From: a virus
Strand: one strand, 5' to 3'
Length of the DNA stretch: 15,138 nt
Virus genome (UHGV): UHGV-0077319
The position numbers and the translations under genes are program-made. Of the stretch, positions 1-15,138 are shown piece after piece. Within the stretch, counting starts at the first letter, position 1. Every line of letters starts with the position of its first letter. The notes beneath the pieces are model-generated. The model saw only the letters and a program-made list of their open reading frames with translations, searched no databases and was not told where the DNA came from.

Positions 1-1100
1 GGCCATGGAACAGGCACACCAACAGGTAATGCAGAGCCTTCTCCCAAACCAAGGTATGCGAGAAGACCAGCTACATCCTTTCCACTCAAATTAGTCAGCG
101 TATTGTCCAGCGGTTGTTTACCTGCCAGCGCATTAAGCATTGTCGTGGCAAAGTTCGGGTCATTCCCCAGCGCCGCAGCCAGTTCGTTCAGTGTATCCAG
201 TGCAGCAGGTGCAGACCCCACCATTGCCGCAATTGCCGATTTCACAAAAGCCGTGGTGGCAATCTGTGTATTGTTAACCGACTGTGCGGCAGTGGGGGCT
301 GTTGGCGTTCCGGTGAGTGCCGGACTTAACAGCGGCGCTTTCAGTGCCAGCGCATTGTTAATGGTGGTACTGAATTTCGGGTCATTATTAATGGCAGCGG
401 CAATTTCTTTCAGCGTATCCAGTGTGGCTGGCGCACCATTAATAAGGGCCATCAGTGCCGCCTGAACAAACGCGGTGGTCGCAATCTGCGTGGTGTTATT
501 CCCCTCCGCTGGCGTTGGCGCTTTGGGTGTTCCGGTCAATGTCGGGCTTTCTTTGGGGGCATACTGTGAATGCGGGTCCGGTGCGGCAAGATGTTTTGCC
601 ATCTTATCATCCACGAACACCTTCAGCTCCAGTACCTTATCATCCACATACTTGCGGGTTGCCAGCACGACGGCAGGGTCGATTTTCAGGGTGATATTGT
701 CCGTGCTGCTGGTAATCAGCACCATGCGCACGGTCTGGGTGCGCCCGCTGCCTTCAGCCAGTTGCGGCTTATAGCTTTCCGGGCAGTTGCCTACGGCAAT
801 CAATGCCCCGGACTCATCAAACAGACCCACTTCACGTATCCACCAACCACCCTCATTTTCAGGGATCACCTGTTCAGCAATAATCTGGCTGCTGTTCTGC
901 GGGTCGATATAGAGCATATTCAGCGCAGCCCGGCGTTTCTCATTTACCAGTGCCGTCTGCTTTGCGTCCGGCGTCGGCAATGCTCCGCCGCCATCGCCCA
1001 CCGCCATATGGGTAATTTTTAGCGGCACACCGAGCGCGGCGGCGCTGGCAAGTTTCGCCGCGCCAATATCCGTCAGCAGGGTATAAAATTTTGTGCTCAT
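1..1100 (-). CDS. H: tail fibre protein gpH, N-terminal part (3' end lies beyond the window start)
   Basis: Minus-strand ATG at 1100 (reverse complement of cat 1098..1100). My hand translation begins MSTKFYTLLTDIGAAKLA and resembles the P2 gpH N-terminus. No minus-strand stop down to position 1. Overlaps the gpI stop by 4 nt. Confidence 0.8.
   Translation of the reverse strand, partial: MSTKFYTLLTDIGAAKLASAAALGVPLKITHMAVGDGGGALPTPDAKQTALVNEKRRAALNMLYIDPQNSSQIIAEQVIPENEGGWWIREVGLFDESGALIAVGNCPESYKPQLAEGSGRTQTVRMVLITSSTDNITLKIDPAVVLATRKYVDDKVLELKVFVDDKMAKHLAAPDPHSQYAPKESPTLTGTPKAPTPAEGNNTTQIATTAFVQAALMALINGAPATLDTLKEIAAAINNDPKFSTTINNALALKAPLLSPALTGTPTAPTAAQSVNNTQIATTAFVKSAIAAMVGSAPAALDTLNELAAALGNDPNFATTMLNALAGKQPLDNTLTNLSGKDVAGLLAYLGLGEGSALPVGVPVPW
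117..495. repeat. two diverged tandem copies (~220 bp period) inside the tail fibre gene
   Basis: The segment starting near 120 (tgccagcgcatt...gtatccagtg...ggcaatctgtgt) recurs near 340 (tgccagcgcatt...gtatccagtg...cgcaatctgcgtggtgtt), with shared anchors visible by eye. The plus-strand shadow ORF 103..465 shows the same internal repetition. Confidence 0.7.
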
Positions 1101-1702
1101 GGATTCACTCTCATTGTGTCAATAACATGGACCGCCCCGCCTTCATGCGCGGTGCCGCCGGAAATAATTGTTTCGTTGATATACGGATAGATCGTGATTT
1201 CTTCGCCAAGATAACTGGCGGCTCCCACCCAATGCGGACCGCTGGTCTGCAGATTGATGGACATGCCGATCATGTGACGGCTACATGGTTTGGCATCGCT
1301 TATCAGTCGCTCAAGTTCCAGATAGGTATCTTCAGTGATGCCCTGGTCCTGCACACCAATGTCCAGACGAAACGTGCCCGGTGTTTCTCCGGTCTGCCAC
1401 CACTCAATAATGCGGATCAGGAAGCCGAACGGCTCCACCACCCGCCGTACGGCACTGGTGGTTCCTTTGTGCTGATGAATATAAAAAGCATCCTTCACTA
1501 CCTGGCGTTTGACGCTTTCTGTCCAGCCCTCGTCCCAGCGATCCACAGAGAACGCCCAGGCGAGATAAGGCAGGAAACTGACCGGACAGGTTGCCGGATT
1601 CCACAAGTCACGCAGTGACACCTGCAGATCAGAAATCCCGCTACAGGTTTGCGCCAGTCGGCGCTCCAGTGGCGTTGAACCCGGTGGCAGCAGACTATTC
1701 AT
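1097..1702 (-). CDS. I: baseplate assembly protein gpI
   Basis: 201 aa ORF. The motif RDLWNPATCPVSFLPYLAWAFSVDRWDEGW matches the conserved P2 gpI core (ELWNPDTCP...LAWAFSVDRWDE). Confidence 0.85.
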   Translation of the reverse strand: MNSLLPPGSTPLERRLAQTCSGISDLQVSLRDLWNPATCPVSFLPYLAWAFSVDRWDEGWTESVKRQVVKDAFYIHQHKGTTSAVRRVVEPFGFLIRIIEWWQTGETPGTFRLDIGVQDQGITEDTYLELERLISDAKPCSRHMIGMSINLQTSGPHWVGAASYLGEEITIYPYINETIISGGTAHEGGAVHVIDTMRVNP

Positions 1703-2603
1703 CCGTTCCCCCGTTGGTCACGCTCCACTGAGTACATGATGCCGCCTGCGTTTTGTTCAGGACCACATCAGCCAGCGGTGAAGCCAGCTCCACACGTTGA
1801 ACACCCTCAACATGCAGCGCGGCAAAAATAGCACTACGGCGAATATCCCGACCGAGCCGCGTCTGACTGGCGATGTACCTCTGCAGGCTGACTTTTGCTG
1901 CTGCCATTACCGGCTCTGCTTCCGGTCCCGGATAAAGAAAAATGGTAGCTTCCACACGGTACGGGATGATTTCTGCGCTGCGAACCGTCAGACGGTCAGC
2001 CACCGGGCGGACGTTCTCACTGTTCAGGGCTTTCTCCACCACATCCAGCAAGTCTTTTTCTGCTGTTCCGTCGCCTTCACGACTCAGGACAGTCAGTACC
2101 ACCTCTGCAGGTGCCGGACTGGTTGCACTGGCATCCGCCACCCGACCGTCGGCGCTTCGGGCATGAAATTCATAAGCTGCAGTTGGTCCCGCAACTGAAA
2201 GCCCTTCAAAGGCTGCAGGCACACGCAGGCGTAACGCTTCATCGCTTTCCATCACAGCTGCAACGGGCGGCACAGCGTCATTATCAGCAGGCGTCACCGT
2301 CAGGCGTTTCACGTTGTAGTTGGCAGCGAGCTGGTCAAGATCGCCGCCCATCGCGTAAGCCACCATCACCGCCTGCGCGGCTTCGTTAATGCGCTGGCGC
2401 AGAAGCAACTCACGGTAAGCATTCTCCTGCAACAATTTGGTGACGGGTTCAGATTCCAGTTCCAGCGTGCGGATCACTGCTTCCTGCTCATCTTTCGGAT
2501 GAAGCGCCACAAATTCTGCCTTGCGTTCGGCAAGCAGCGTCTCAAAGTCCGGCACATCCACAATCTGCGGTGCAGGCAACTGCGAAAGGTCAATCACTGC
2601 CAT
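1695..2603 (-). CDS. J: baseplate assembly protein gpJ
   Basis: The track ORF 1695..2642 starts at an upstream Met. The P2-like N-terminus MAVIDLSQLPAPQIVDVPDFETLLAERKA begins at the ATG at 2603 (cat 2601..2603). The C-terminus ends ...VTNGGTDE like P2 gpJ. Confidence 0.85.
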   Translation of the reverse strand: MAVIDLSQLPAPQIVDVPDFETLLAERKAEFVALHPKDEQEAVIRTLELESEPVTKLLQENAYRELLLRQRINEAAQAVMVAYAMGGDLDQLAANYNVKRLTVTPADNDAVPPVAAVMESDEALRLRVPAAFEGLSVAGPTAAYEFHARSADGRVADASATSPAPAEVVLTVLSREGDGTAEKDLLDVVEKALNSENVRPVADRLTVRSAEIIPYRVEATIFLYPGPEAEPVMAAAKVSLQRYIASQTRLGRDIRRSAIFAALHVEGVQRVELASPLADVVLNKTQAASCTQWSVTNGGTDE

Positions 2604-2949
2604 TCTCTGCTCCTGTTGATACGGAAAGGGACACAGGCACACCGTTATTCCGCCGCCCGGTCAGCTCCACCACCATAGAACCGTCAAAGTTGCTGTTGAT
2701 GGTGATGGAATCCAGCGTCAGCCGTGGCTCCCAGCGACTCAGCGCCACATACACTGCCGACATGACCTGCAGGCGTAATGCCGGATTTTGTGGCTGGTCT
2801 ATCAGTGCCGACAGCAGGGAACCATATTCACGACGGGCAATGCGGCTACCCTGCGGCGTCAGCAAAATGTCCCGCACCGACTGGCGCAGATGGTCAATAT
2901 CAGTAATGGCTTTACCGCTGGTATTGTTCATCCCGATATAAAGCGTCAT
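2590..2949 (-). CDS. W: baseplate wedge protein gpW
   Basis: 119 aa. GMNNTSGKAITDIDHLRQSVRDILLTPQGSRIARREYGSLL is similar to P2 gpW. Overlaps the gpJ start by 14 nt and gpV by 4 nt. Confidence 0.85.
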   Translation of the reverse strand: MTLYIGMNNTSGKAITDIDHLRQSVRDILLTPQGSRIARREYGSLLSALIDQPQNPALRLQVMSAVYVALSRWEPRLTLDSITINSNFDGSMVVELTGRRNNGVPVSLSVSTGAENGSD

Positions 2950-3524
2950 ACCGGGCCTCCGGTGGTGTCGCCGCCTTTCAGGACGCCAGTATGCTGATGC
3001 GCATCAACCACGATCCCGTTAGAACTCATTGCACCGCCGCCCTGGGTAACGCCACCATTGATCACCACCTCACTGTTAATACGCGTGCGGTCAGCCTCCA
3101 GTACAAACTCACTGGTTTTCAGGGTGATATTGTCAGTGGCCTCAATGACCATAGATTTGATGCCCCTGACATACCAGAGCCCGGTGGCGGGTTCGTATTC
3201 AAACCAGCCACCGTCAGGATGTTCTGTCACGCAGGCGTCCGCCGACGTCGACGGTGGAGCGAACTGATTCGAATAGACAGCGGGCAGCGCAAAGGCAGTT
3301 TCCAGATTACCGCCCAGACTCAGCAGCACCACCTGCTCACCTTCCGATGGTCGCCACCATGTCCGGGCATTTCCTGCACGCAGCGTCAGCCAACTGATCC
3401 AGTTAGTTTCAAGCTCGCCCGTTTTCACTCGGCAAAGCCAGTTTTCCCTGTCCACTTCGGTGACTACCCCAGTGCGGATCAGGTTGGTGATAAGGCGCAT
3501 GATTTCGGTAAGTTGTGCGTTCAT
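2946..3524 (-). CDS. V: baseplate spike/assembly protein gpV
   Basis: 192 aa. MNAQLTEIMRLITNLIRTGVVTEVDRENWLCRVKTG...TWWRPSEGEQ is similar to P2 gpV. This is the first gene of the V-W-J-I-H operon. Confidence 0.85.
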   Translation of the reverse strand: MNAQLTEIMRLITNLIRTGVVTEVDRENWLCRVKTGELETNWISWLTLRAGNARTWWRPSEGEQVVLLSLGGNLETAFALPAVYSNQFAPPSTSADACVTEHPDGGWFEYEPATGLWYVRGIKSMVIEATDNITLKTSEFVLEADRTRINSEVVINGGVTQGGGAMSSNGIVVDAHQHTGVLKGGDTTGGPV

Positions 3525-3611
3525 GGGGCTGATTCTTGCATGCTAAAAGAAATAAGATCTCCTGTTCAAAAATGTATGAACTCCTATACAATGTATTTCC
3601 CATGAAAATTT
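3525..3611. promoter_or_regulatory. divergent control region between gpV (minus) and the moron ORF (plus); contains a TGT-N12-ACA dyad
   Basis: TGTatgaactcctatACA at 3573..3590 fits the TGT-N12-ACA Ogr/Delta activator-site consensus of P2 late promoters. A sigma70-like pair TTCAAA (3565..3570) and TACAAT (3587..3592) with 16 nt spacing reads toward the plus strand. Confidence 0.35.
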
Positions 3612-4214
3612 ATGGAATTGCTAAAAGTGAACGAAGATAATCAACCTGAAAAAGAAACCAATATCTTGAATAAATGGTCACCCAGGGACTTACTTAATCC
3701 TTTTACTGAACTCTTTACAATATTCACATCAAAAAATGATAACGAAGTGGAAAACGCAGCTGAAAATTTTCAGATGCGAATTCAAAAACTAATATTCTTC
3801 ACATTAACTTTACTACTTCTTACGAAAGGTTTTTTTGAAATACTACAAACTCTAACTTTTTTAGAACAACCCCTTATTCTTCATTTCCCACTCTTAAATG
3901 AACCTTTAGTGTTTTATAAAGACCATGGCATTGCTGGTAGCCTTTTAAGAATAAAATCACTAGTATTTGTAGCCAATGCATTAGCTCTTTCATGCGGTTT
4001 TCAGCTGGCATACATGCTTGTAACAAAGGGACCAGATGAAGCCGTAGAACCAATTATGTTGGGTATCGCCTCTGCTATTCTTTTAATTCTTTCTGATAGT
4101 TCTCCTGCAGAATGGGGGCTGGAGAAATCCTTAGCTATATTCTTTTTAATAATAAGCATCCCAATTTTATATTGGTCATCAAGAAAAATGAAAAAAGATA
4201 AAGATAACGAATGA
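3612..4214 (+). CDS. hypothetical polytopic membrane protein (AT-rich moron at the S/V junction)
   Basis: 200 aa ORF on the strand opposite to the late genes, in markedly AT-rich DNA with AT-rich codon usage. At least four hydrophobic helices (LIFFTLTLLLLTKGFF, ALSCGFQLAYMLV, IMLGIASAILLILS, LAIFFLIISIPILYW). No clear SD; the true start could be a downstream Met (for example MRIQKL). Confidence 0.55.
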   Translation: MELLKVNEDNQPEKETNILNKWSPRDLLNPFTELFTIFTSKNDNEVENAAENFQMRIQKLIFFTLTLLLLTKGFFEILQTLTFLEQPLILHFPLLNEPLVFYKDHGIAGSLLRIKSLVFVANALALSCGFQLAYMLVTKGPDEAVEPIMLGIASAILLILSDSSPAEWGLEKSLAIFFLIISIPILYWSSRKMKKDKDNE

Positions 4215-4240
4215 CACATTATTTTTCTTTATAGGTATAT

Positions 4241-4687
4241 TTATCTAAATAGCCAGCACAGAATAGCGTCACGGGTAACTATTTCCACTTCATCACTAAC
4301 GCCTAGTAGTCTACGCTCTGCATAGCGGACCTCCGGTCCTCTTCGACTGACGCGATCACGCAGGCCGTAATGGTGAACACGGGCAATGCGCTGTACCTTG
4401 CCTTCAAACTGCACGCTGGCAGAGTCGGCGCTGGCGGCAGTTTTCAGGTATTTTGTGGTGCGCAGCTTTGTAAACATCTGACGTTTGATGCGCCCCTTTT
4501 TGCTGCGTGCTGTTACCCGTCGCGGCTCATAACTGCTGCCATCTGGATTGCGCTGCATCCTGATGTTCTGCTGCTGTGTCCGGCGCAGTTCCTGCGCCAG
4601 CTGGCGCATCATGCGGCTTCTGGTGGCTGGCTCCAGATTCGCCAGCAAGGCACTCAGCCAGTCGTCCACTTTCTGCAGTTCAGCCAC
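4241..4687 (-). CDS. S: tail completion / virion morphogenesis protein gpS
   Basis: 148 aa ORF in the S position, last gene of the O-to-S operon. Size and position match P2 gpS (about 150 aa). Confidence 0.75.
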   Translation of the reverse strand: MAELQKVDDWLSALLANLEPATRSRMMRQLAQELRRTQQQNIRMQRNPDGSSYEPRRVTARSKKGRIKRQMFTKLRTTKYLKTAASADSASVQFEGKVQRIARVHHYGLRDRVSRRGPEVRYAERRLLGVSDEVEIVTRDAILCWLFR

Positions 4688-5132
4688 GTTTCACCGTCCA
4701 CATTTCTTCAGGTTCATCAGGTTCCGCTATAGCTTCAACGCTCGACACACTGCCGTCAGTGCTGACCAGCACACGCTCCGTCAGTTGCAGGTTCAGGCTG
4801 ATATCACAGACATCGTTGCGCAGAATATCCACCTCAAAGGTGAATAGCTTTTCCCGTAACGCCGGGTTATTGATGGCATCGGGCTGGTTATCACGCAGCC
4901 ACAGCAAAACCGGGGCCATCAACAGATTCTGGTCACCACTGAAATCCTCTATCACCACGTTCAGGGTGTAGCGGTACTCCCATGACATGGAGCTGGCCCC
5001 CGTGGCAACCAGCGAACCGTTATCCACAAACAGATGCAGTTTGTCCGGGTTATTACGGACATAAGGCACTGCTTTATTAATGGCGTGGCGCAGGGATTGT
5101 GGTTTGTTCACTATTTCGCTCCTGACACGCAA
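4680..5132 (-). CDS. R: tail completion protein gpR
   Basis: 150 aa. NPDKLHLFVDNGSL...RYTLNVVIEDFSGDQNLLMAPVLLWLRDNQPD parallels P2 gpR (NPDMLRIFVDNGSI...RYTLNVIVTDFTGD...VPVLAWLRENQPD). Confidence 0.8.
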   Translation of the reverse strand: MRVRSEIVNKPQSLRHAINKAVPYVRNNPDKLHLFVDNGSLVATGASSMSWEYRYTLNVVIEDFSGDQNLLMAPVLLWLRDNQPDAINNPALREKLFTFEVDILRNDVCDISLNLQLTERVLVSTDGSVSSVEAIAEPDEPEEMWTVKRG

Positions 5133-5364
5133 TAATCATGTCCACTTTGTCGGCACAGACCGCCCAGGCGGCCTCCGTTTCATCCAGCAACGCGTTCAGA
5201 TCACCGTTAGTGCGCGGCGCTGCCTGATCCAGTCGACACGGCGTCACCCGCGGACAACCACTGACGGTAAGCTGCACCTCCGGTAAATGCCGGACGTTTC
5301 CGCAGCCGGATAATGTCAGCAGGCAAAGGAGTATCAGCCCAGCGGCGTAAATCCTCGTTCTCAC
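5077..5364 (-). CDS. lysC: LysC-like o-spanin (outer-membrane lipoprotein), out of frame within and beyond lysB
   Basis: 95 aa with a signal peptide and lipobox (LILLCLLTLSGC). It starts inside the lysB frame and extends past the lysB stop, the embedded/overlapped spanin architecture of Rz/Rz1 and P2 lysB/lysC. The exact start is uncertain. Confidence 0.55.
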   Translation of the reverse strand: MRTRIYAAGLILLCLLTLSGCGNVRHLPEVQLTVSGCPRVTPCRLDQAAPRTNGDLNALLDETEAAWAVCADKVDMIIACQERNSEQTTIPAPRH

Positions 5365-5635
5365 GTTTCAGTTCCTCGATCCGGCGTTGTCGTTGTCTCA
5401 GCTGTGCGCTGGTCTGTTCTGCTTCGGCATAGAGCCGCGCCTGCTCCCGGTTATTGGTTTCATTCAGAATGGACAGGCTGATAAGCTGGCTGTTGCTCTT
5501 TGCCAGTGCCTGGCTTTTGCTCTGCAGCTCGTTTGCCTGCGTGCTGATGGTCTGGCTGGCATCAGCCAGCCGCCACGTCTGCCAGCCCAGCGCCGCCAGT
5601 AATAACGCCAGCACAACCAGCAGCAACCGGTTCAT
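5207..5635 (-). CDS. lysB: LysB-like i-spanin (Rz-like)
   Basis: 142 aa. N-terminal TM helix MNRLLLVVLALLLAALGW followed by a charged coiled-coil-like segment (EQARLYAEAEQTSAQLRQRQRRIEELKRENEDLRR). Sits in the lysis-cassette position. Confidence 0.7.
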   Translation of the reverse strand: MNRLLLVVLALLLAALGWQTWRLADASQTISTQANELQSKSQALAKSNSQLISLSILNETNNREQARLYAEAEQTSAQLRQRQRRIEELKRENEDLRRWADTPLPADIIRLRKRPAFTGGAAYRQWLSAGDAVSTGSGSAAH

Positions 5636-6009
5636 GCTGCTACCTGTTGCGCCATCTGATTACGGGTGATCCAGAAGGCAATAACGGTCAGTAGATAAAA
5701 GACTAGGGTAATAGCCCACCCCGTCCATGCGAGACTTACAACAATCAGCAATCGCATCACCCAACTGATAAATACGTTTTCTTTTCGGGTAATTGTCTTC
5801 AGCAAAGATGCCCTTAACTCCTGCCAGAGCGGGCCATTCTGAATTAACGCAGCCAGTGCTACCGGAATTACCGCCCATGTCAGCAAACAGGCTACCCAAA
5901 CGCCGGACGCTGCCAGTACCGGAAAGATCCCCTGCGGATACACCATTGCTGCGATTAACAGCGCCATCCATAACATCAGAAACAGTCCGCTGATTAATTT
6001 CTTTTTCAT
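5632..6009 (-). CDS. lysA: LysA-like multi-pass membrane protein (putative lysis regulator/antiholin)
   Basis: The track ORF 5632..6081 has an unlikely upstream start. MKKKLISGLFLMLWMALLIAAMV begins at the ATG at 6009 (cat 6007..6009). About 126 aa with four hydrophobic helices. Position is as for P2 lysA. Confidence 0.65.
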   Translation of the reverse strand: MKKKLISGLFLMLWMALLIAAMVYPQGIFPVLAASGVWVACLLTWAVIPVALAALIQNGPLWQELRASLLKTITRKENVFISWVMRLLIVVSLAWTGWAITLVFYLLTVIAFWITRNQMAQQVAA

Positions 6010-6010
6010 T

Positions 6011-6523
6011 TCAGTTTGCTCCCTGTAAACACCAGGCCATCTCCCGCGCACGGCGGTTATCCAGCCCCTGATTAAACACACCTTTTACATAAACCCAGCG
6101 CGGCAACTGTCGGCACGCATCCGCCCAGCGCCGCTGATTGAGCAATTTCACCAGCGTGGAACTACAGGCATTGCCCGTCCCCACGTTGAAGGCAAACGAC
6201 ACCGTAGCGTCATACACCTTCTGTGGTGGCTGTTGCTTCACACACCTTTCCAGTGCCCGCTCCACACGCAGCACGTTGGAGATCAGCCCTTCTGCTGCCT
6301 GTCGTTCCGTGATTGTTTTGCCGGGAATGACGCCCGATGTATTACCAATGCCGTCGGTCCAGACACCCGCGCTGCACTGATACGGCTGCAGACGACAGCC
6401 TTCGTAATCGGCAATCAGTTTCAGCCCCTCCACGGAGGTGTGAAGCTGCTGAAAACCCGGCAGCGTGGCAGCAATAGCCAGCACGACCCCGACAAGGCAG
6501 CGTTTAACGATTGATGGATTCAT
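6011..6523 (-). CDS. phage lysozyme (T4/P21-type, GH24-like) with a probable N-terminal SAR signal-anchor-release domain
   Basis: 170 aa. Weakly hydrophobic Gly/Ala-rich N-terminus (VKRCLVGVVLAIAATLPG), then a lysozyme core (EGLKLIADYEGCRLQPYQCSAGVWTDGIGNT; FNVGTGNACSSTLVKLLN) resembling the P21 R21 SAR endolysin. Confidence 0.85.
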   Translation of the reverse strand: MNPSIVKRCLVGVVLAIAATLPGFQQLHTSVEGLKLIADYEGCRLQPYQCSAGVWTDGIGNTSGVIPGKTITERQAAEGLISNVLRVERALERCVKQQPPQKVYDATVSFAFNVGTGNACSSTLVKLLNQRRWADACRQLPRWVYVKGVFNQGLDNRRAREMAWCLQGAN

Positions 6524-6719
6524 AGTCCTCCCGCGAGATCTGCCCGTCGCGCAGAAGCTGGTAGGCTTTGTGTTTGTAGTACCAGTTGATAGCCAGCATC
6601 AGCACACCAATCATCAGGCCGCCCAGCGTTGAGGCATCCTTGATGGACAAATCGCCCAGCCAGGCCAGCACGACGGCGATGCAATACGTGATAAAGGCGC
6701 TGATTCGCTCAAGCGTCAT
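6504..6719 (-). CDS. small holin, two predicted TM helices (pinholin-like)
   Basis: 71 aa. Two hydrophobic segments (ISAFITYCIAVVLAWL and LGGLMIGVLMLAINWYY) and a charged C-tail. Lies immediately upstream of, and overlaps, the lysozyme gene. Confidence 0.65.
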   Translation of the reverse strand: MTLERISAFITYCIAVVLAWLGDLSIKDASTLGGLMIGVLMLAINWYYKHKAYQLLRDGQISREDYESINR

Positions 6720-6722
6720 AAT

Positions 6723-6926
6723 TCAGTCCCATAGCTGGACGGTCTGCACGGTGGTGGTTGTCGGAATGTCCGGCAGCTCCACCTGCAGCCCGTGAGGTAA
6801 AAAGGGGCCGTATTCGGCAAGCCCCGGATTTGCCTTCAGTACCTGCTCCGTGACACCCTGCGTGCGCCCGTAATGACGCCAGCAAAGCGCGTCCACCGTG
6901 TCATACTGATGCGCACGCACTTTCAT
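6723..6926 (-). CDS. X: tail protein gpX
   Basis: 67 aa, the same size and position as P2 gpX (between L and the lysis genes). Confidence 0.75.
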   Translation of the reverse strand: MKVRAHQYDTVDALCWRHYGRTQGVTEQVLKANPGLAEYGPFLPHGLQVELPDIPTTTTVQTVQLWD

Positions 6927-7390
6927 CAGATAAGCTCCACTGTGCAGTGCGGCGCATCCTGTACCCGGCTGATGGCCCAGCGGGCGTCACGCCACAAATC
7001 ACCGCTTGCTTCCGCCTGTTCCTCGCCCCGCTTCACACCGGACGCCGTGGCGTCATAGTCCTGATAACGCTCATTGAGCATGGCGCGTGCCCAGCAGTAA
7101 ACCGCGTTGAAATAGTGATGAATGCGCTCACTTTTGCCGTCCAGCTGTTCCGCCGGAACCTCAGCCAGCGACGCATACCCCAGCATCTGCTGACGTCTGC
7201 GAAACTCATACAGCTCTGCGTTGACCTCCGAAATTGCCGACAGCGCAACCTGCTTTAAACGCGGCTGCGTCACCGTGCCGTCAGTGCGCATGACACTGCG
7301 AAACTCCGACAAGTCCACATCAGGCCAGAACGGCGTATTTCTGATGATTTCCGCCTGTTCCGGTACCTGTTCTGGCGCAACAAACTTCAT
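6926..7390 (-). CDS. L: head completion/stabilisation protein gpL
   Basis: The track ORF extends to 7453. The ATG at 7390 (MKFVAPEQ...) is preceded by AGGAGA on the minus strand (reverse complement of tctcct 7398..7403) and gives a P2 gpL-sized product. IIRNTPFWPDVDLSEFRSVMRTDGTVT is similar to P2 gpL. Confidence 0.8.
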   Translation of the reverse strand: MKFVAPEQVPEQAEIIRNTPFWPDVDLSEFRSVMRTDGTVTQPRLKQVALSAISEVNAELYEFRRRQQMLGYASLAEVPAEQLDGKSERIHHYFNAVYCWARAMLNERYQDYDATASGVKRGEEQAEASGDLWRDARWAISRVQDAPHCTVELI

Positions 7391-7485
7391 GCTGCTTTCT
7401 CCTGAAATAAAGGGCGGTGGACGGGGTTTTGATGTGGCTGTGCCTTTCGCCACCCCGTGCCGCCCGTGCGCGGGGGCACGTTCTG

Positions 7486-8136
7486 TCAGCGGCTGTCATT
7501 GCGCAGTCTGCGCTCCAGCTGCTGTTTGTCTTTTTTCACGCCACAGCGGGGATCGAGCTGTAACGCATGGTTGAGATGATTAAGGGCGGAAGCCGGATTG
7601 CTTTCACTCAGGACAGCGCCAATCGCTTTATGCAGACGCGCCCGTGACTGGTCTGGCATATCCAGACCGTCTGTCAGCTCCAGCGTCTGCAGCAACAGAT
7701 CGGCATCAAAGCCGGTGGCGGCAAGCATTGCGCTCTGCGCTGCATCTGCCATTTCCTCTGCCAGCACGGTCTGCACGTTGCGGTTACCCAGCGGCATCAC
7801 CCAGCCATGACGCAGGGCATGACGCCCAATATCCAGCGCCCCGGCATAATCTCCGGCATCAATGCGCCACAGCATCACGTACATCAGCACGTCATCCTGT
7901 TGAGCGCCTCCGGCAGCCAGGACGCCCTCCGCCCAGGCGGCATATTTCGGCAGCAGCTCCACCTTGATTTCCGCTTTTTTCACCGTGGACTGAACGCCCT
8001 TGAGACGGCGGCGGTCTTCCGCCAGTTGCAGCAGCATCAGGTCATAGCCCGACGCGTGGCGAACACTGCCGCCCTCACGGGCGGCCTGTTCAGCCTGAAC
8101 GCGCAGGCGATGCTGCCGTGCGGGACTCAGGCTCAT
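7486..8136 (-). CDS. M: terminase small (endonuclease) subunit gpM
   Basis: 216 aa. LPKYAAWAEGVL...GGAQQDDVLMYVMLWRIDAGDYAGALDIGRHALRHG is similar to P2 gpM. Sits between N and L. Confidence 0.85.
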   Translation of the reverse strand: MSLSPARQHRLRVQAEQAAREGGSVRHASGYDLMLLQLAEDRRRLKGVQSTVKKAEIKVELLPKYAAWAEGVLAAGGAQQDDVLMYVMLWRIDAGDYAGALDIGRHALRHGWVMPLGNRNVQTVLAEEMADAAQSAMLAATGFDADLLLQTLELTDGLDMPDQSRARLHKAIGAVLSESNPASALNHLNHALQLDPRCGVKKDKQQLERRLRNDSR

Positions 8137-8139
8137 GGT

Positions 8140-9195
8140 TTATGCTCCGGCTTCTACGGCGACGCTGAAGTCGCCAATCTGGATGTTTTCCACCAGTGCT
8201 GCGCAGCGGTAGTCCTCAACCACATAGGCTTCGTTAACGGATTCAAAGTTTTCAATCCGGTCACGTTTCGGGTTGTCGATAACTGAACGGCGGCGGGTGT
8301 CTTCCTGCCAGTAGATGGACAGGTTATCCAGACGGGTGATCAGCAGCGCATTCGGCGGGAAGAACGGCGCACGCACGGCCTGCAGGCCACCCATGCGTTT
8401 CTGGCTGATGATCATATCGGCAGCCAGTTTTTCACTGTTTTCCTGCTCTTTGTTGACCAGCGGGAAATACTTATCAGACAACAGTTCACGACCGCAAATC
8501 ACCACCAGATCGTCATCGTCCTGGTAGACCACGTCGATAAGCTCATTAACGGCATCCATCACCACGGCGTCCAGATTGGCATATTCGCCACCTTTGCCGA
8601 CTTTCACTGCACCCGGTGTGGTTTCACCGCCCGTGGTGCTGCTGCCCATGACGTGATCCGGTGCATCCTCACGAATTTTCTGCAGCCAGCCTTTATTCAC
8701 ATCCTGCAGCAGCGGGTTTTCGCTACGGTTGGAGGTTTTCGCACGCTTCACGCCGTTAAAGCCGATCATGATGCGGTCCAGTGCCTGACGTTTCACGATG
8801 GCGTCACGGATACGCACCTGGAAATCCTGAAACTTCGCCCACAGGTCCAGCTTCGCGTAGGTCAGCACCGTGTCAAAGTTGGTCTGCTCGCATTTATATT
8901 CCACATCGACCATCAGCGTCGGATCGACAGGTTCACGCTCTTTCGCGGTGGTGTCAGTGGTTCCGGCAATGGTGCTGCCAACACCCAGCCCCAGCAGCTG
9001 ACCGGACTGCTCAGTCACTGGCGTGACGTTAATCAGCGTCAGGAAAGCGGTGGACTGCTGGATCTGGTCTTCCAGCGTCTGCTGCACAGACGGCTCCACA
9101 GTGAATTTGCTGGACAGTTCTTCAACTGCCACACCGTTCAGACGCGCCAGCTGCTGCAGGTAAGCGTTAAAAGCAAAGCGGGTATTCTTCTTCAT
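8140..9195 (-). CDS. N: major capsid protein gpN
   Basis: 351 aa. N-terminus TRFAFNAYLQQLARLNGVAVEELSSKFTVEPSVQQTL is closely similar to P2 gpN. Confidence 0.9.
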   Translation of the reverse strand: MKKNTRFAFNAYLQQLARLNGVAVEELSSKFTVEPSVQQTLEDQIQQSTAFLTLINVTPVTEQSGQLLGLGVGSTIAGTTDTTAKEREPVDPTLMVDVEYKCEQTNFDTVLTYAKLDLWAKFQDFQVRIRDAIVKRQALDRIMIGFNGVKRAKTSNRSENPLLQDVNKGWLQKIREDAPDHVMGSSTTGGETTPGAVKVGKGGEYANLDAVVMDAVNELIDVVYQDDDDLVVICGRELLSDKYFPLVNKEQENSEKLAADMIISQKRMGGLQAVRAPFFPPNALLITRLDNLSIYWQEDTRRRSVIDNPKRDRIENFESVNEAYVVEDYRCAALVENIQIGDFSVAVEAGA

Positions 9196-9211
9196 CGGGT
9201 TTTGTGCTCCA

Positions 9212-10045
9212 TCAGCAATTGGTCAGAGTGTCAGCGGGGGTGTTACCGCCTGTTGCACGCTGGCGGTAGTCCTGGCGGCTGTCTTCTTGACTCAGCTTGT
9301 CCACCAGTTCGTTAAAGGCGGTCTGCTGTGCCTGCAGGGCAGTCTCCAGCTCAGACAGGCGTTCTTCCTGCTCAGACAGGGATTTTTCGGTGCGTGCGCT
9401 CAGGTTTTGCTGCTCAGTGGCGACCAGCTCCACGGCCTTATGCACATCAGAGAACCGGGCGTCATCGGACTGCTCTTTTTTGGTAAACAGCGCCGTGACA
9501 CGGGCAAACAGGGACGGTTTGTCATCCTGGATTTCTTCCAGTTCGATCACCGTTTCCTCTGCAGCGGTAAAGAGATTGGCAGGATTCTGCTTGCGGTTTG
9601 CCAGTGGGTTATGGGCTGCACTGGCGCTGAATGTCAGCATTTCAGTGCCCAGACTGGCAGGGTCATCAGTGGCAGCCAGGCCGACCAGGTAGGCTTTGCC
9701 CGTATCAGCGAACTTCGGGCTGACTTCCATAGAGGTGAATAATTTCTGGCCTTTTTTCACCAGTTCCACCAGGGACTCCGTTGGCTCAACGTCGGCATAC
9801 AGCGCCATCTTGCCTGCCAGCGGACCTTCCGTGATTTCTTCAGCAAACAGCGCCGTCACCTTGCCGTAGCGGTTAAAGGTGCTGTCCGGCAGATAAGACT
9901 TGATGTGCTCAAGGTTAATCAGCGCGGTATACACCGCCGGGTTGTAGCTGGCTGCCATCTGTTCCAGCCATTCACGCTGGATTTCGCGTCCGTCGGTGGT
10001 GGCACCTTCCACCCCGATGCGAAAACGCTTTGCTTTCACTGTCAT
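9212..10045 (-). CDS. O: capsid scaffolding protein gpO
   Basis: 277 aa. N-terminus MTVKAKRFRIGVEGATTDGREI is similar to P2 gpO. Acidic coiled-coil C-terminal half. First gene of the leftward late operon. Confidence 0.9.
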   Translation of the reverse strand: MTVKAKRFRIGVEGATTDGREIQREWLEQMAASYNPAVYTALINLEHIKSYLPDSTFNRYGKVTALFAEEITEGPLAGKMALYADVEPTESLVELVKKGQKLFTSMEVSPKFADTGKAYLVGLAATDDPASLGTEMLTFSASAAHNPLANRKQNPANLFTAAEETVIELEEIQDDKPSLFARVTALFTKKEQSDDARFSDVHKAVELVATEQQNLSARTEKSLSEQEERLSELETALQAQQTAFNELVDKLSQEDSRQDYRQRATGGNTPADTLTNC

Positions 10046-10187
10046 GAGCCGTGCTCCGTTAGAAAAAACTTACTGGAGCCTTATGGTTGCGGTGATGGGG
10101 GCAGTGAAACAATGCGCGGTATTTGTACCGACAACCACACAAACCGCAGGCGGGGAAAGCCTTCATTCAAGGCTGTAGGTTTGTGCC
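10046..10187. promoter_or_regulatory. divergent late promoter region (PO / PP equivalent) with a TGT-N12-ACA activator-site dyad
   Basis: 142 bp between divergent gpO (minus) and gpP (plus). TGTaccgacaaccacACA at 10124..10141 fits the Ogr/Delta binding consensus. Its centre lies about 55 bp upstream of a transcription start that would leave a ~30 nt leader for gpO. Confidence 0.5.
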
Positions 10188-11954
10188 ATGAACACCACAC
10201 TGACACCCGCAGATCTCGATCCCCGTCGGCAGGCCATGCTGCTGTACTTTCAGGGATACCGCGTAGCCCGCATTGCTGAAATGCTGGGCGAGAAAGTTGC
10301 AACCGTTCACAGCTGGAAAAAACGCGACAAGTGGGGTGACTATGGGCCGCTGGATCAGATGCAGCTCACCACCGCCGCACGCTACTGCCAGCTCATTATG
10401 AAGGAGCACAAAGAAGGGAAAGATTTCAAAGAGATTGACCTGCTGGCGCGCCAGTCGGAGCGCCATGCGCGGATCGGCAAGTTTAACAATGGCGGCAACG
10501 AAGCCGACTTAAACCCTAACGTCGCCAACCGCAACAAAGGCCCGCGCCGTCAGCCGGAAAAGAACGTTTTCACCGATGAACAGATTGAGAAGCTGGAAGA
10601 AATCTTCCATTCCTCCATGTTCAACTACCAGCGCCACTGGTGGGAAGCCGGAAAAACCAACCGCATCCGCAACCTGCTGAAGTCACGCCAGATCGGCGCG
10701 ACCTTCTATTTTGCCCGTGAAGCCCTGATTGACGCCCTGCTAACCGGGCGTAACCAGATTTTCCTTTCCGCCAGCAAGGCACAGGCCCACGTCTTTAAGC
10801 AGTACATCATCGACTTCGCCAAAGAAGTGGAGGTGGAGCTGAAAGGCGATCCGATAGTGCTTCCTAACGGGGCCACGCTGTACTTCCTCGGCACCAATGC
10901 CCGCACGGCCCAGAGTTACCACGGCAACCTGTATCTGGATGAATATTTCTGGATACCGAAATTCCAGGAGCTGCGCAAAGTGGCTTCCGGTATGGCTATT
11001 CACAAAAAATGGCGACAAACCTATTTTTCCACGCCATCCAGCCTGACACACAGTGCTTATCCGTTCTGGTCCGGTGCGCTGTTCAACCGTGGGCGCAACA
11101 AAGCCGACAAGGTGGACATCGACCTGTCCCACAGCAATCTGGCCCCCGGCCTGCTGTGCGCAGACGGGCAATACCGCCAGATAGTCACCGTGGAAGATGC
11201 GGTGCGCGGCGGCTGTAACCTGTTCGACCTCGACCAGCTACGCATGGAGTACAGCCCGGACGAATACCAGAACCTGCTGATGTGCGAGTTCGTGGACGAT
11301 CTCGCGTCCGTGTTCCCGCTTAGCGAACTGCAGACGTGCATGGTGGACAGTTGGGAAGTCTGGACCGACTTTCATGCACTGGCCCTGCGCCCGTTTGGCT
11401 GGCGCGAGGTGTGGATCGGTTATGACCCGGCAAAAGGTACGCAGAACGGCGACAGTGCCGGATGCGTGGTGGTGGCTCCGCCAGCCGTGCCGGGCGGTAA
11501 GTTCCGTATTCTTGAGCGTCACCAGTGGCGCGGGATGGACTTCCGCGCCCAGGCTGATGCAATCAAAAAACTGACCGAGCAGTACAACGTGACCTATATC
11601 GGCATTGACTCGACAGGCGTCGGTCACGGGGTTTATGAGAACGTGAAAGCGTTCTTTCCTGCCGTCCGGGAGTTTGTCTACAACCCCAACGTTAAAAACG
11701 CTCTGGTACTCAAGGCCTACGACATTATCAGTCACCGTCGTCTGGAGTTTGACGCCGGACACACCGACATTGCGCAGTCATTCATGGCAATCCGTCGCGC
11801 AACCACCGCCAGCGGCAACCGCCCGACCTATGAAGCCAGCCGCAGCGAAGAAGCCAGCCACGCCGATCTGGCCTGGGCAACAATGCACGCACTGTTTAAC
11901 GAACCGCTGCAGGGCGAATCCGCCAATACCAGCAATATTGTGGAGATTTTTTGA
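10188..11954 (+). CDS. P: terminase large (ATPase) subunit gpP
   Basis: 588 aa. N-terminus PRRQAMLLYFQGYRVARIAEMLGEKVATVHSWKKRD is similar to P2 gpP. Stop overlaps the Q start (ATGA). Confidence 0.9.
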   Translation: MNTTLTPADLDPRRQAMLLYFQGYRVARIAEMLGEKVATVHSWKKRDKWGDYGPLDQMQLTTAARYCQLIMKEHKEGKDFKEIDLLARQSERHARIGKFNNGGNEADLNPNVANRNKGPRRQPEKNVFTDEQIEKLEEIFHSSMFNYQRHWWEAGKTNRIRNLLKSRQIGATFYFAREALIDALLTGRNQIFLSASKAQAHVFKQYIIDFAKEVEVELKGDPIVLPNGATLYFLGTNARTAQSYHGNLYLDEYFWIPKFQELRKVASGMAIHKKWRQTYFSTPSSLTHSAYPFWSGALFNRGRNKADKVDIDLSHSNLAPGLLCADGQYRQIVTVEDAVRGGCNLFDLDQLRMEYSPDEYQNLLMCEFVDDLASVFPLSELQTCMVDSWEVWTDFHALALRPFGWREVWIGYDPAKGTQNGDSAGCVVVAPPAVPGGKFRILERHQWRGMDFRAQADAIKKLTEQYNVTYIGIDSTGVGHGVYENVKAFFPAVREFVYNPNVKNALVLKAYDIISHRRLEFDAGHTDIAQSFMAIRRATTASGNRPTYEASRSEEASHADLAWATMHALFNEPLQGESANTSNIVEIF

Positions 11955-12979
11955 TGGGAAAGAGTAAGAAGAACCGCGCTGCGGCGACGAAACAGCTCCA
12001 GCTTAAAAACCAGACTACAGCCGAAGCATTCAGCTTCGGCGATCCCGTTCCTGTTCTGGACCGCCGAGAACTGCTGGACTATGTGGAATGCGTACAGATG
12101 GACCGTTGGTATGAGCCGCCCGTCAGCTTTGACGGACTGGCGCGCACCTTCCGCGCTGCCGTGCATCACAGTTCCCCGATTGCAGTAAAGTGCAACATTC
12201 TGACCAGTACCTATATCCCTCATCCGCTGCTCAGCCAGCAGGCTTTTTCGCGTTTTGTGCAGGACTATCTGGTATTTGGTAACGCCTACCTGGAGAAACG
12301 CACAAACCGATTCGGTGAAGTTATCGCTCTTGAGCCTGCGCTGGCAAAATACACCCGACGCGGATTAGACCTGGATACCTACTGGTTTGTGCAATACGGT
12401 ATGACAACCCAGCCGTATCAGTTCACGAAAGGCAGCATTTTTCATCTGATGGAACCGGACATCAACCAGGAGATCTACGGCCTGCCCGGCTATCTTTCTG
12501 CCATTCCGTCAGCCCTACTCAACGAGTCCGCCACGCTGTTCCGTCGCAAGTATTACATTAACGGCAGCCATGCGGGCTTTATCATGTACATGACCGATGC
12601 CGCGCAAAACCAGGAGGATGTGAACAACCTCCGCAACGCGATGAAAAGCGCCAAAGGTCCAGGCAACTTCCGCAACCTGTTTATGTACTCGCCTAACGGC
12701 AAAAAGGACGGGCTTCAGATCATCCCATTGTCAGAAGTCGCGGCGAAGGATGAATTTCTTAATATCAAGAACGTGAGTCGGGATGACATGATGGCAGCGC
12801 ACCGCGTGCCGCCTCAGATGATGGGGATTATGCCTAATAATGTTGGGGGGTTTGGGGATGTGGAGAAAGCAAGTAAAGTGTTTGTACGAAACGAACTTAT
12901 ACCATTACAAAAACGCTTAGGAGAGATAAATGAATGGCTTGATAAAAAAATAATAGAATTTGAAATATATTCACTCTGA
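11951..12979 (+). CDS. Q: portal (capsid vertex) protein gpQ
   Basis: 342 aa in the position downstream of and overlapping P, as in the P2 P-Q operon. The last ~30 codons fall in AT-rich sequence, which suggests the island junction lies at the gene's 3' end. Confidence 0.85.
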   Translation: MMGKSKKNRAAATKQLQLKNQTTAEAFSFGDPVPVLDRRELLDYVECVQMDRWYEPPVSFDGLARTFRAAVHHSSPIAVKCNILTSTYIPHPLLSQQAFSRFVQDYLVFGNAYLEKRTNRFGEVIALEPALAKYTRRGLDLDTYWFVQYGMTTQPYQFTKGSIFHLMEPDINQEIYGLPGYLSAIPSALLNESATLFRRKYYINGSHAGFIMYMTDAAQNQEDVNNLRNAMKSAKGPGNFRNLFMYSPNGKKDGLQIIPLSEVAAKDEFLNIKNVSRDDMMAAHRVPPQMMGIMPNNVGGFGDVEKASKVFVRNELIPLQKRLGEINEWLDKKIIEFEIYSL

Positions 12980-13026
12980 TACATTTACATCACTTAATAG
13001 GACATCCATCGCTCAACACATAATAA

Positions 13027-13056
13027 GAAAAAAAACTACGGCACTACCGTGCCGTA
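13027..13056 (-). terminator. rho-independent terminator for the minus-strand cargo operon (possibly weakly bidirectional)
   Basis: Perfect 7 bp stem acggcac (13038..13044) / gtgccgt (13049..13055) with a 4 nt loop. On the minus strand the hairpin is followed by a U8 tract (A-run 13028..13035 on the plus strand). Lies directly after the last cargo gene. Confidence 0.6.
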
Positions 13057-13064
13057 ACAAATTA

Positions 13065-13559
13065 TCACTTTAAGAATTTTTTCTGATAAGACTCATCAAT
13101 TAGAGATTTAATTATTTTCGCCCTTTTTGACACTAATACACTAATTCTTGTCCTTTGACTTTTATCATACTCCTGTGCTTTTTCAATATTAGATGTAGCA
13201 TCTTTGAATAAATCAGCAATCAAAGGTTTATAGTCACCTTCGATATTAATGCGTTGTTTTAGATGATTCAACCACCGCTCGGTCTCCGCAAGAAGTGCTG
13301 TTATCTCATTTTGAAATGACATTGCATCAATTTCTTTTGAATCTCCCGGTATCCAAAACTTTCTTGATGCAGATTCAATTTCCTTTAAATTATCTGAAAC
13401 ATTTTTTACAATTGACCATGTTTCACTCCTCTTTTGCAACGCACGGGAGTTTCTATATACAAAAACCCAACCAATCAAGGCTGTTAGAATTGCAATCACA
13501 CCTGAACTAGCAAGGTATTGTAATAACCGCAGATAAACCGGAAGTTCATCCATGAACAT
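13065..13559 (-). CDS. cargo gene C: single-pass membrane protein with coiled-coil-like soluble domain (hypothetical; candidate effector)
   Basis: AT-rich ORF. Candidate starts are GTG 13562, ATG 13559 (overlapping the gene B stop as TGATG) and ATG 13553 (GGAG 8 nt upstream). N-terminal hydrophobic helix LLQYLASSGVIAILTALIGWVFVY, then a charged helical region. The terminator follows. Confidence 0.6.
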   Translation of the reverse strand: MFMDELPVYLRLLQYLASSGVIAILTALIGWVFVYRNSRALQKRSETWSIVKNVSDNLKEIESASRKFWIPGDSKEIDAMSFQNEITALLAETERWLNHLKQRINIEGDYKPLIADLFKDATSNIEKAQEYDKSQRTRISVLVSKRAKIIKSLIDESYQKKFLK

Positions 13560-13879
13560 CACTCCTTTTTAGCATCAGAAATATATCCCCATATACTATC
13601 CTTGAGGAAATCCAAATCAGTAAATATTTTTAATTTTTTCCTAATTATAGCTTTATCTATATTATTTGTTCTATAAAGTCCACCAAACGCCTCTTCCAAG
13701 AATGAAGAACCATAACCCATAGCACCATCAAGGTACACGTGCACCTCATCATAATCTTGGATGGCTTTCAAAAGATACTTTTCACGGAAACGTTGTCCAT
13801 TATCAGGACCATCCTCATCATAGCGGCCATAGGGAACATCTGAAAAATCTTCAGCAACATGTATCTCTTTGATTTTCAT
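13559..13879 (-). CDS. cargo gene B: small acidic protein, STAS-like (anti-sigma-antagonist-like) by motif; hypothetical
   Basis: 106 aa. ATG at 13879 overlaps the gene A stop (ATGA). VHVYLDGAMGYGSSFLEEAFGGL resembles the strand-Ser-helix core of STAS/SpoIIAA-like domains. The assignment is from motif memory only. Confidence 0.55.
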   Translation of the reverse strand: MKIKEIHVAEDFSDVPYGRYDEDGPDNGQRFREKYLLKAIQDYDEVHVYLDGAMGYGSSFLEEAFGGLYRTNNIDKAIIRKKLKIFTDLDFLKDSIWGYISDAKKE

Positions 13880-14943
13880 TCAGCACCTCTCAAACTTACA
13901 TTCCATTGAATAAGGGTTCCACCTATGGAGTATGGCAGATCAAATTTATCTTCAACATTATTTTCAGCATCATAAGAATATCGTCCCATTCCACTAAAAA
14001 TATGTAACTGCCCCTCAGGGTTATCTACAACATACCTTTTCATATCAGGTAATCCTTTACCATGCTTCTGACTATTCATTCTTGTCTCACCATACTGTAC
14101 AGCCGCGAATATTTTATCAGAATCCGTCTTAGGATTAAATATCTGAGCGATAAATGTGAAAAAGTCTTTTTTAACCAATGTAACTGGGATACCTTCTCCC
14201 ATATCATACACCATCAAAAATAGTTGTTCTTCGACTTTGTGTGCCAATATCCACCATCTTTTACCAATGTCCTCAATAAATTCAGAGAACTGTTCTTCAT
14301 TTGAATACGCATGTAGACCAACATTGCTAATAGATTCAGTTAATGCTGCATATAATTTCACACCATCCGAAGCGGAAATCTTACCTTCATAAATGGTATC
14401 TTTTATATAACGTAGAATATTTTTAATTTTTTGTCTTGCTTCGGCACTTTCATGATCATCTCTAGTTTTGCCTGCAACAGCGGAAACAATTTCCATTGAA
14501 TTAAGCTTATCTGCAGCTATACGCTGAAACCCTGTAATCCCCCAAATACCACATATTTTAAACCAGTTATTTGCCCTGGGTGAACCGCACGTAGTAATAG
14601 AAATTATATTTTTATCTTTTGTTTGCCTTTGTAAAAAGTCAATATGTGCATACAATACGATTACTGCACATGCTTTCAGAGATTTTGTATTTCTGAAATC
14701 TATTAAAATTTTCTCACCATCATTGATGTAATCTCTGATTAAAGTGATAAACTCTATAAATAGTTTGTAATTTTTAGTATTAAATAAGTCCAATGACGCA
14801 GGCGCGGGTATTCTCACACGAGAGAATACCCGCATGGGCTGTAGCATCCGTCTTCCACCAGAAAGCTTTCTTGACTCCCGCTTCGCAATCTTCCTTGCTC
14901 TGATCAAAGAATGTTCAATTTGTTCTTCAGTTAGCCGCTTCAT
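13876..14943 (-). CDS. cargo gene A: protein with an N-terminal domain of unknown function and a C-terminal GHKL (histidine-kinase-like) ATPase domain
   Basis: The track ORF starts at 14988, but the ATG at 14943 (MKRLTEEQ) has GAGG 7 nt upstream. Bergerat-fold motifs appear in the canonical order: N-box ESISNVGLHA, G1 box YDMGEGIP (DxGxG), G2 box HGKGLPD (GxGL). The N-terminal ~200 residues are unrecognised. Confidence 0.65.
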   Translation of the reverse strand: MKRLTEEQIEHSLIRARKIAKRESRKLSGGRRMLQPMRVFSRVRIPAPASLDLFNTKNYKLFIEFITLIRDYINDGEKILIDFRNTKSLKACAVIVLYAHIDFLQRQTKDKNIISITTCGSPRANNWFKICGIWGITGFQRIAADKLNSMEIVSAVAGKTRDDHESAEARQKIKNILRYIKDTIYEGKISASDGVKLYAALTESISNVGLHAYSNEEQFSEFIEDIGKRWWILAHKVEEQLFLMVYDMGEGIPVTLVKKDFFTFIAQIFNPKTDSDKIFAAVQYGETRMNSQKHGKGLPDMKRYVVDNPEGQLHIFSGMGRYSYDAENNVEDKFDLPYSIGGTLIQWNVSLRGAE

Positions 14944-15138
14944 ATCCTTTCCTCGATAGTTGTTGAAGCTTATCAGTTCACGCAACAACTACAAACATCT
15001 ACCTGCTATCTTAAAGCAACAATTTGAAAGAACATTGAAAATCATAGTATCTGTTTGTAAACAAACGACTGTTTCTATACCTTGCGCGCGCTCGTATCCC
15101 CGCCACGCCTGCCCGCTTTATGTAGTGGTTTTCATGCA

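Follow-up and report, generated by a model that had tools for sequence, protein, structure and literature searches.

A predicted Fels-2-type cos site beside an AT-rich cargo operon in a P2-family prophage of E. coli

The question raised by this locus is what the short GC-rich block at its end represents. The window, as the whole 15,138-nucleotide stretch of viral DNA analysed here is called, closes with this block after a long AT-rich interval. An earlier note, made from the sequence alone, had likened part of the block to the cohesive ends of phages P2 and 186 and had suggested that, if this is the cos region, an AT-rich cargo operon sits between cos and gene Q. Alignment with the P2, 186 and P4 junctions, the order of the surrounding genes and the presence of matching terminase genes all support that reading. 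Positions 15084..15138, together with a few bases past the window, very probably form the cos of a Fels-2-type (Felsduovirus-like) P2-family prophage in an E. coli chromosome. A cos of this kind is an already-known, ordinary feature that is annotated in close relatives and adds nothing new to phage biology; its identification matters mainly for annotation.

Prophage backbone and packaging genes

The window is P2-family prophage DNA that runs in the orientation opposite to the P2 map. Several complete E. coli chromosomes, e.g., that of strain D3, match positions 11900..15138 at 99.8% identity, and the bases beyond the window were taken from this strain (locus L002). The following genes make up the recognisable backbone:

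1097..3524, minus strand: baseplate and tail genes I, J, W and V
4241..5132, minus strand: tail genes S and R
Minus strand: capsid and terminase genes O, N and M
7486..8136, minus strand: terminase small (endonuclease) subunit gpM (Pfam Phage_term_smal, E = 1e-40; 94% identical to Fels-2, 49% to P2)
10188..11954, plus strand: terminase large (ATPase) subunit gpP (Pfam Terminase_6N, Terminase_6C and Terminase_5; 97% identical to Fels-2, 64% to P2)
11951..12979, plus strand: portal protein gpQ (Pfam Phage_portal; 90% identical to Fels-2, 62% to P2)

A two-subunit terminase (gpP and gpM) and gpQ, all intact and of the Fels-2 type, are encoded by the same element as the predicted cos. The packaging and head genes within the window are full-length and 85–97% identical to those of Fels-2, and the remainder of the prophage, as found in E. 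coli D3, includes intact A, Dam-like, regulatory and lysis genes. In D3, genes P and Q come first, three cargo genes stand between Q and the GC-rich block, and a DinI/Tum-like gene and then a small ORF separate the block from replication gene A. Once the linear maps of P2 and 186 are circularised (right arm–cos–Q–P), their order is the same, and the GC-rich block occupies the position of cos.

Besides the cargo, the backbone is interrupted by a second AT-rich island at 3450..4350 (GC 0.30–0.37), which lies between V (2946..3524, minus strand) and S (4241..4687, minus strand). The island carries one ORF of 200 aa (3612..4214, plus strand) on the strand opposite to V and S, and this ORF has no match in Pfam, PADLOC or NCBIfam. 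In P2, this position between V and S is that of orf30.

The GC-rich block compared with known cos junctions

The change in base composition at the window end is pronounced. GC content is 0.55 across the backbone (1..12800), 0.35 across 12980..15074 and 0.29 in the last part of that interval (15000..15074), and then rises to 0.60 in 15081..15138, where the window terminates with ...ccttgcgcgcgctcgtatccccgccacgcctgcccgctttatgtagtggttttcatgca. The return to GC-rich sequence described earlier is thus real; its onset had been placed at 15075, and the switch actually falls at about 15081–15086.

Within the block, the reverse complement of 15097..15109 reads GGCGTGGCGGGGA. This 13-mer is unique among the 15,138 nt on both strands, even when up to two mismatches are allowed. 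The cohesive ends of P2 and 186 given in the earlier note are correct: cosL of P2 (NC_001895, 1..19) is GGCGAGGCGGGGAAAGCAC, and the cos of 186 (NC_001317, 1..19) is GGCGTGGCGGGGAAAGCAT. The proposed 13-nt match to the 186 cohesive end is exact on the minus strand when set against the NC_001317 annotation. The segment fits the P2-family start GGCG[A/T]GGCGGGGA, and its first 13 nt agree with 186 at 13/13 positions and with P2 at 12/13. Aligned base for base with the annotated P2 and 186 cos, the block resolves into three parts:

15084..15090, minus strand: left-arm flank of the cos core, CGCGCGC, the last conserved bases before the variable cargo
15091..15109, minus strand: predicted 19-nt cohesive-end segment, reading 5'-GGCGTGGCGGGGATACGAG-3'
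15110..15138, minus strand: right-arm flank of the cos core, GCATGAAAACCACTACATAAAGCGGGCA and then cut by the window edge, 100% identical to Fels-2

For a wider comparison, the circular junctions of P2, 186 and P4 were rebuilt from the ends of their records, anchored on the 19-mer and compared over positions −32 to +26, counted from the first overhang base. The window ends 29 nt into the right-arm side and the core runs about 3 nt past its edge, such that 3 of these 58 nt lie outside the window. Fels-2 is identical to the present core at 58/58 positions and Yersinia phage MLG42 at 57/58. Alignment of the window end and downstream sequence with the P2 and 186 cos regions, a check that the earlier note had put forward, shows homology across the core, with 45/58 positions identical in each case; P4 shares 44/58, and six P4-like satellites of other Enterobacterales share 41–44/58. 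Across 12 elements, six of them P4-like satellites, 33/58 positions are invariant.

The shared positions are arranged in recognisable blocks. Both TGCAT.AAAA and AAGCGGGC[A/G] are common to the window, P2, 186, P4 and the six P4-like satellites, and P2, 186 and P4 carry [T/C]GCGCGC at the place of the left flank of the window. P2 and 186 in particular resemble the window in the left flank GCGCGC, in the right-arm elements TGCAT.AAAACC and AAGCGGGC[A/G], in genomic position and in terminase family. A conserved cos core of about 55 bp in P2, 186 and P4 is attributed to Ziermann & Calendar 1990 by later papers (PMC5694545, PMC2231350), and the extent of the conserved block agrees with the 55-bp core in the limits that those citing papers give.

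Could the resemblance be a chance motif, or could the block belong to a small gene that encodes a protein? A short hypothetical CDS is indeed annotated over the match in several records of Klebsiella and Yersinia phages. However, an exact copy of GGCGTGGCGGGGA would be expected only about 0.0007 times in 15 kb of this base composition, and the RefSeq annotation of E. coli D3 has no gene at the block. Moreover, the core is kept in P4-like satellites whose flanks are wholly different, which argues for a shared packaging signal rather than linked coding sequence. Conservation on the Q side also ends abruptly at fixed nucleotide positions. Among 77 distinct loci with this 19-mer, the columns of the CGCGCGC flank are 88–100% conserved, and conservation then falls to 40–55%, the drop in column agreement being from 0.99 or higher to about 0.4–0.55. 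This sharp stop 6–7 nt past the overhang, with unrelated cargo immediately following, is the pattern of a DNA site. A chance motif or small gene is therefore highly improbable, and a cos core remains the favoured interpretation of the block.

On the right-arm side, conservation among the same 77 loci reaches about 125 nt from cos, i.e., about 95 nt beyond the window. Several GCATG/TGCAT repeats are conserved in this stretch (9211..9335 of the D3 locus L002), together with a hairpin that resembles a terminator, CCCGCCAG..CTGGCGGGCTTTT. Repeats of the GCAT type can also be seen by eye in the right ends of P2 and 186. The repeats and the hairpin may provide terminase with further binding sites beyond the 55-bp core. 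A weak terminator-like hairpin, with a 5-bp stem followed by TTTTCATGCA, lies inside the cos core itself (15113..15128, plus strand) and is probably coincidental.

The ATACGAG overhang and packaging

The cohesive-end segment of the window departs from those of P2 and 186 at its 3ʹ end. According to the earlier note, the match stops after 13 nt and the sequence then diverges. Positions 14–19 (TACGAG after a common A) are indeed unlike P2 and 186, where AAAGCAC or AAAGCAT stands in place of ATACGAG, with differences at positions 14, 16, 17 and 19; over the whole 19-nt overhang, the window differs from P2 at 5/19 positions and from 186 at 4/19. The description falls short in that the divergent stretch is a conserved Fels-2-type variant, and likeness to P2, 186 and P4 is back within the next 6–7 nt (CGCGCGC, 15084..15090).

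Judged by its recurrence in related sequences, ATACGAG is a conserved lineage variant and not noise. Fels-2 (NC_010463), SEN8 (KT630647), Cartapus (OV696611) and MLG42 all carry the identical 19-mer GGCGTGGCGGGGATACGAG, and in Fels-2-type phages, as in the present prophage, cos is situated between a DinI-like gene and Q. In the window, this overhang is found together with the right-arm flank GCATGAAAACCACTACATAAAGCGGGCA, the combination that distinguishes the Fels-2-type cos. The exact 19-mer occurs in at least 120 IMG/VR stretches. Of 80 such loci that were fetched, 75 are P2-like with an arrangement consistent with A–DinI–cos–Q–P, 5 could not be classified and none is a satellite.

The same 19-mer has been annotated as cos in relatives. 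It is the annotated cos of the Salmonella phage SEN8 (PMC5427200), whose record (KT630647.2) starts at the 19-mer, labelled 'putative cos site' (1..19), and ends at position −1. In the E. coli phage Cartapus, the 19-mer lies inside a feature (1..59) described as 'putative cos site, homologous to the cos of P2 phage'. These 'putative' features were probably assigned by homology to P2, and the labels are therefore not independent proof of cos. In the literature searched, there were no physically mapped ends for the ATACGAG variant; a string search matched the SEN8 annotation only, and the Cartapus paper contains no end mapping (PMC9928086). For the P2-type phage HQ103, PhageTerm confirmed the homologous end position (PMC10321612).

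P4 and P4-like satellites share the core architecture of the window, and the overhang variants sampled among them are all other than ATACGAG. Satellites were sampled from 6 GTDB loci, 60 E. coli rows and 160 metagenome and IMG/VR loci. In the GTDB, metagenome and IMG/VR collections (loci L130–L135 and L137–L296), 148 satellite cos sites linked to psu were sampled, and they show seven overhang variants:

AAAGCAC: 118 sites
AGAGCAT, with T at position 5: 17 sites
GGAGCAT: 6 sites
AGAGCAT, with A at position 5: 3 sites
AAAGCAT: 2 sites
ATAGCAT: 1 site
AAAGCAC, with T at position 5: 1 site

Every satellite variant sampled begins with the 12 nt GGCG[A/T]GGCGGGG. ATACGAG was seen at 0/148 psu-linked cos sites, in a sample that is strongly biased towards close E. 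coli relatives of P4 and dominated by near relatives of P4 Psu, and none of the alignments to the 60 E. coli rows stopped short at the overhang, as a site with ATACGAG would cause. On these sequences, ATACGAG combined with a divergent terminase (49–64% identical to P2) might represent a distinct class of packaging specificity that is not copied by P4-type satellites, a proposal that is quite unlikely to hold. If it did, Fels-2-type phages would escape piracy by P4.

Homology, position and the cognate gpM, gpP and gpQ genes are observed at this locus; cleavage at the positions given below, 5ʹ overhangs and an active site are predictions made by analogy with P2 and 186. Upon induction, the prophage would excise and replicate as circles, and its own terminase (gpM and gpP) would recognise the core of about 55 bp on the circular replicated DNA. 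Two nicks 19 nt apart, in the minus strand 5ʹ of position 15109 and in the plus strand 5ʹ of position 15091, would produce linear virion DNA whose 5ʹ ends are single-stranded, the left one being GGCGTGGCGGGGATACGAG and the right one the complement of it. Following injection, the ends would anneal, and ligation would restore cos. As cos fixes the ends of the packaged genome, the AT-rich cargo would be located at the extreme left end of virion DNA, which would read GGCGTGGCGGGGATACGAG, CGCGCGC, cargo, Q and P, the cargo beginning 7 nt past the overhang.

Several observations on relatives bear on this scheme. P2 packaging prefers covalently closed circles. P4 likewise packages preferentially from covalently closed circles, and cosmid transduction demonstrated that the P4/P2 cos is sufficient in cis for packaging (PMC2231350). 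Cartapus, a Fels-2-like prophage of strain LF82, is spontaneously induced and releases DNase-protected encapsidated genomes (PMC9928086). SEN8 and the Yersinia vB_YpM phages, which carry the same core, are propagated isolates. That Cartapus, SEN8 and the vB_YpM phages carry this core and package their DNA supports the identification of the block as cos.

Descent from a cos does not by itself make the present copy active, and the sequence may be a genuine cos that persists as a relic in a defective, non-inducible prophage and that always goes uncut in this strain. Poor inducibility, or none at all, is common among P2-like prophages. The low output of the close relative Cartapus, about 3e5 encapsidated genomes per mL (PMC9928086), also speaks for a relic. 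Against it stand the 58/58 identity of the core to Fels-2, the full-length packaging and head genes with 85–97% identity to those of that phage, and the intact A, Dam-like, regulatory and lysis genes of D3. A relic is thus unlikely, with some chance of being correct, and relic status would leave the identity of the sequence as cos unchanged.

The cos–Q interval and its cargo

The distance between cos and Q also sets the present locus apart from P2 and 186. From the overhang to the Q stop codon, P2 has 167 nt and 186 has 176 nt, with only a terminator in between, whereas the window has 2111 nt filled with cargo. Such proximity in P2 and 186 could be taken to mean that the real cos lies right after Q, e.g., in 12980..13064, and that 15097..15109 is a non-functional look-alike. 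However, the window contains no second match to the 13-mer with two mismatches allowed. Furthermore, the same 19-mer is separated from Q by variable DNA in most related loci: the interval is filled in 48 of 54 measurable cases (0.5–3.5 kb, median 1697 nt), and the short, empty state is found in the other 6/54. A cos adjacent to Q is accordingly extremely improbable, and the block at the window end is retained as the predicted site. The interval 12980..13064 was itself considered as a cos candidate and rejected, as it has no cos-like motif, is AT-rich and cargo-specific, and contains the cargo terminator.

That the cargo sits between Q and cos, as the earlier note had proposed on condition that the block is cos, is borne out by BLAST. 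With 12000..15138 as the query against 80 loci that carry this 19-mer, homology to 79/80 related loci is lost at 12895..12981 and regained at 15079..15086. The cargo is therefore an AT-rich segment of about 2.1 kb that extends roughly from 12900/12980 to 15083. One boundary lies 7 nt beyond the overhang and the other in the last codons of Q, and the segment comprises three features:

13035..13058, minus strand: rho-independent terminator for the cargo operon, with a 10-bp stem and a run of T after it (terminator scan and direct reading)
13065..14988, minus strand: three-gene cargo operon encoding proteins of 370 aa, 106 aa and 165 aa; GC 0.35 versus 0.55 in the backbone
14989..15083, minus strand: AT-rich cargo leader from cos to the first cargo start codon; GC 0.23–0.33, not conserved where the cargo differs

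The cargo promoter is presumed to lie within the leader. A consensus scan of 14989..15083 gave no sigma-70 match of at least 9/12, and the promoter is for this reason inferred rather than located.

At the other boundary, the 3ʹ end of Q (12880..12979) is affected. The last 30 or so codons are AT-rich, the final 15–80 nt or so already belong to the variable region, and the C-terminal residues of the protein differ among the window, Fels-2 and P2. Because homology breaks at variable points inside Q, cassette exchange seems to recombine within the 3ʹ end of the gene and not downstream of it.

Gene content in this interval also varies among relatives, and against the other Fels-2-type phages the cargo is the only point of difference at the cos locus. 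Between cos and Q, a single 1.7-kb gene is present in Fels-2, a DUF4145 gene in Cartapus, and a pair of genes, one of them for an HNH endonuclease, in SEN8. The cargo of the window is unlike all three, consisting of an operon with an HATPase-like gene, a STAS-like gene and a third gene. It is found at 98% identity or more in 20 complete E. coli genomes, and among the 80 related loci it is shared only by one from IMG/VR (L022), at 78% identity.

The 370-aa protein has a weak, sub-threshold match to HATPase_c (Pfam, E = 0.002), the 106-aa protein contains a STAS-like DUF4325 domain (Pfam, E = 3.5e-12), and the 165-aa protein has a hydrophobic stretch near its N-terminus. From these domain matches, the trio resembles a kinase/STAS partner-switching pair accompanied by a possible membrane protein. 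Searches with PADLOC and NCBIfam returned zero matches for the cargo, a literature search for DUF4325 gave no system, and the HATPase_c and DUF4325 domains are absent from the main text of Rousset 2022. The operon is a candidate for an uncharacterised defence cassette.

The location of the cargo is a familiar one. Foreign genes inserted in the cos–Q interval were described by Dodd & Egan 1996 (retrons Ec67/Ec86) and by Nakayama 1999 (both cited in PMC5694545), and the interval forms part of the A-to-Q defence hotspot described by Rousset et al. 2022 (PMC9122126) and also covered in a 2026 NAR survey. In the known hotspot phages, as in the window, AT-rich foreign genes take the place of the sequence that runs from cos to the end of the P–Q operon (PMC5694545, PMC9122126). 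The position of the present operon at this classic hotspot strengthens its reading as a mobile accessory cassette, possibly one with a role in defence.

The A side of cos is variable as well, exceeding 250 nt in 35/52 loci. Unlike the window, P2 carries its cargo (old and tin) on this side. In the present prophage, the A side is minimal, with 203–204 nt from the DinI stop codon to cos.
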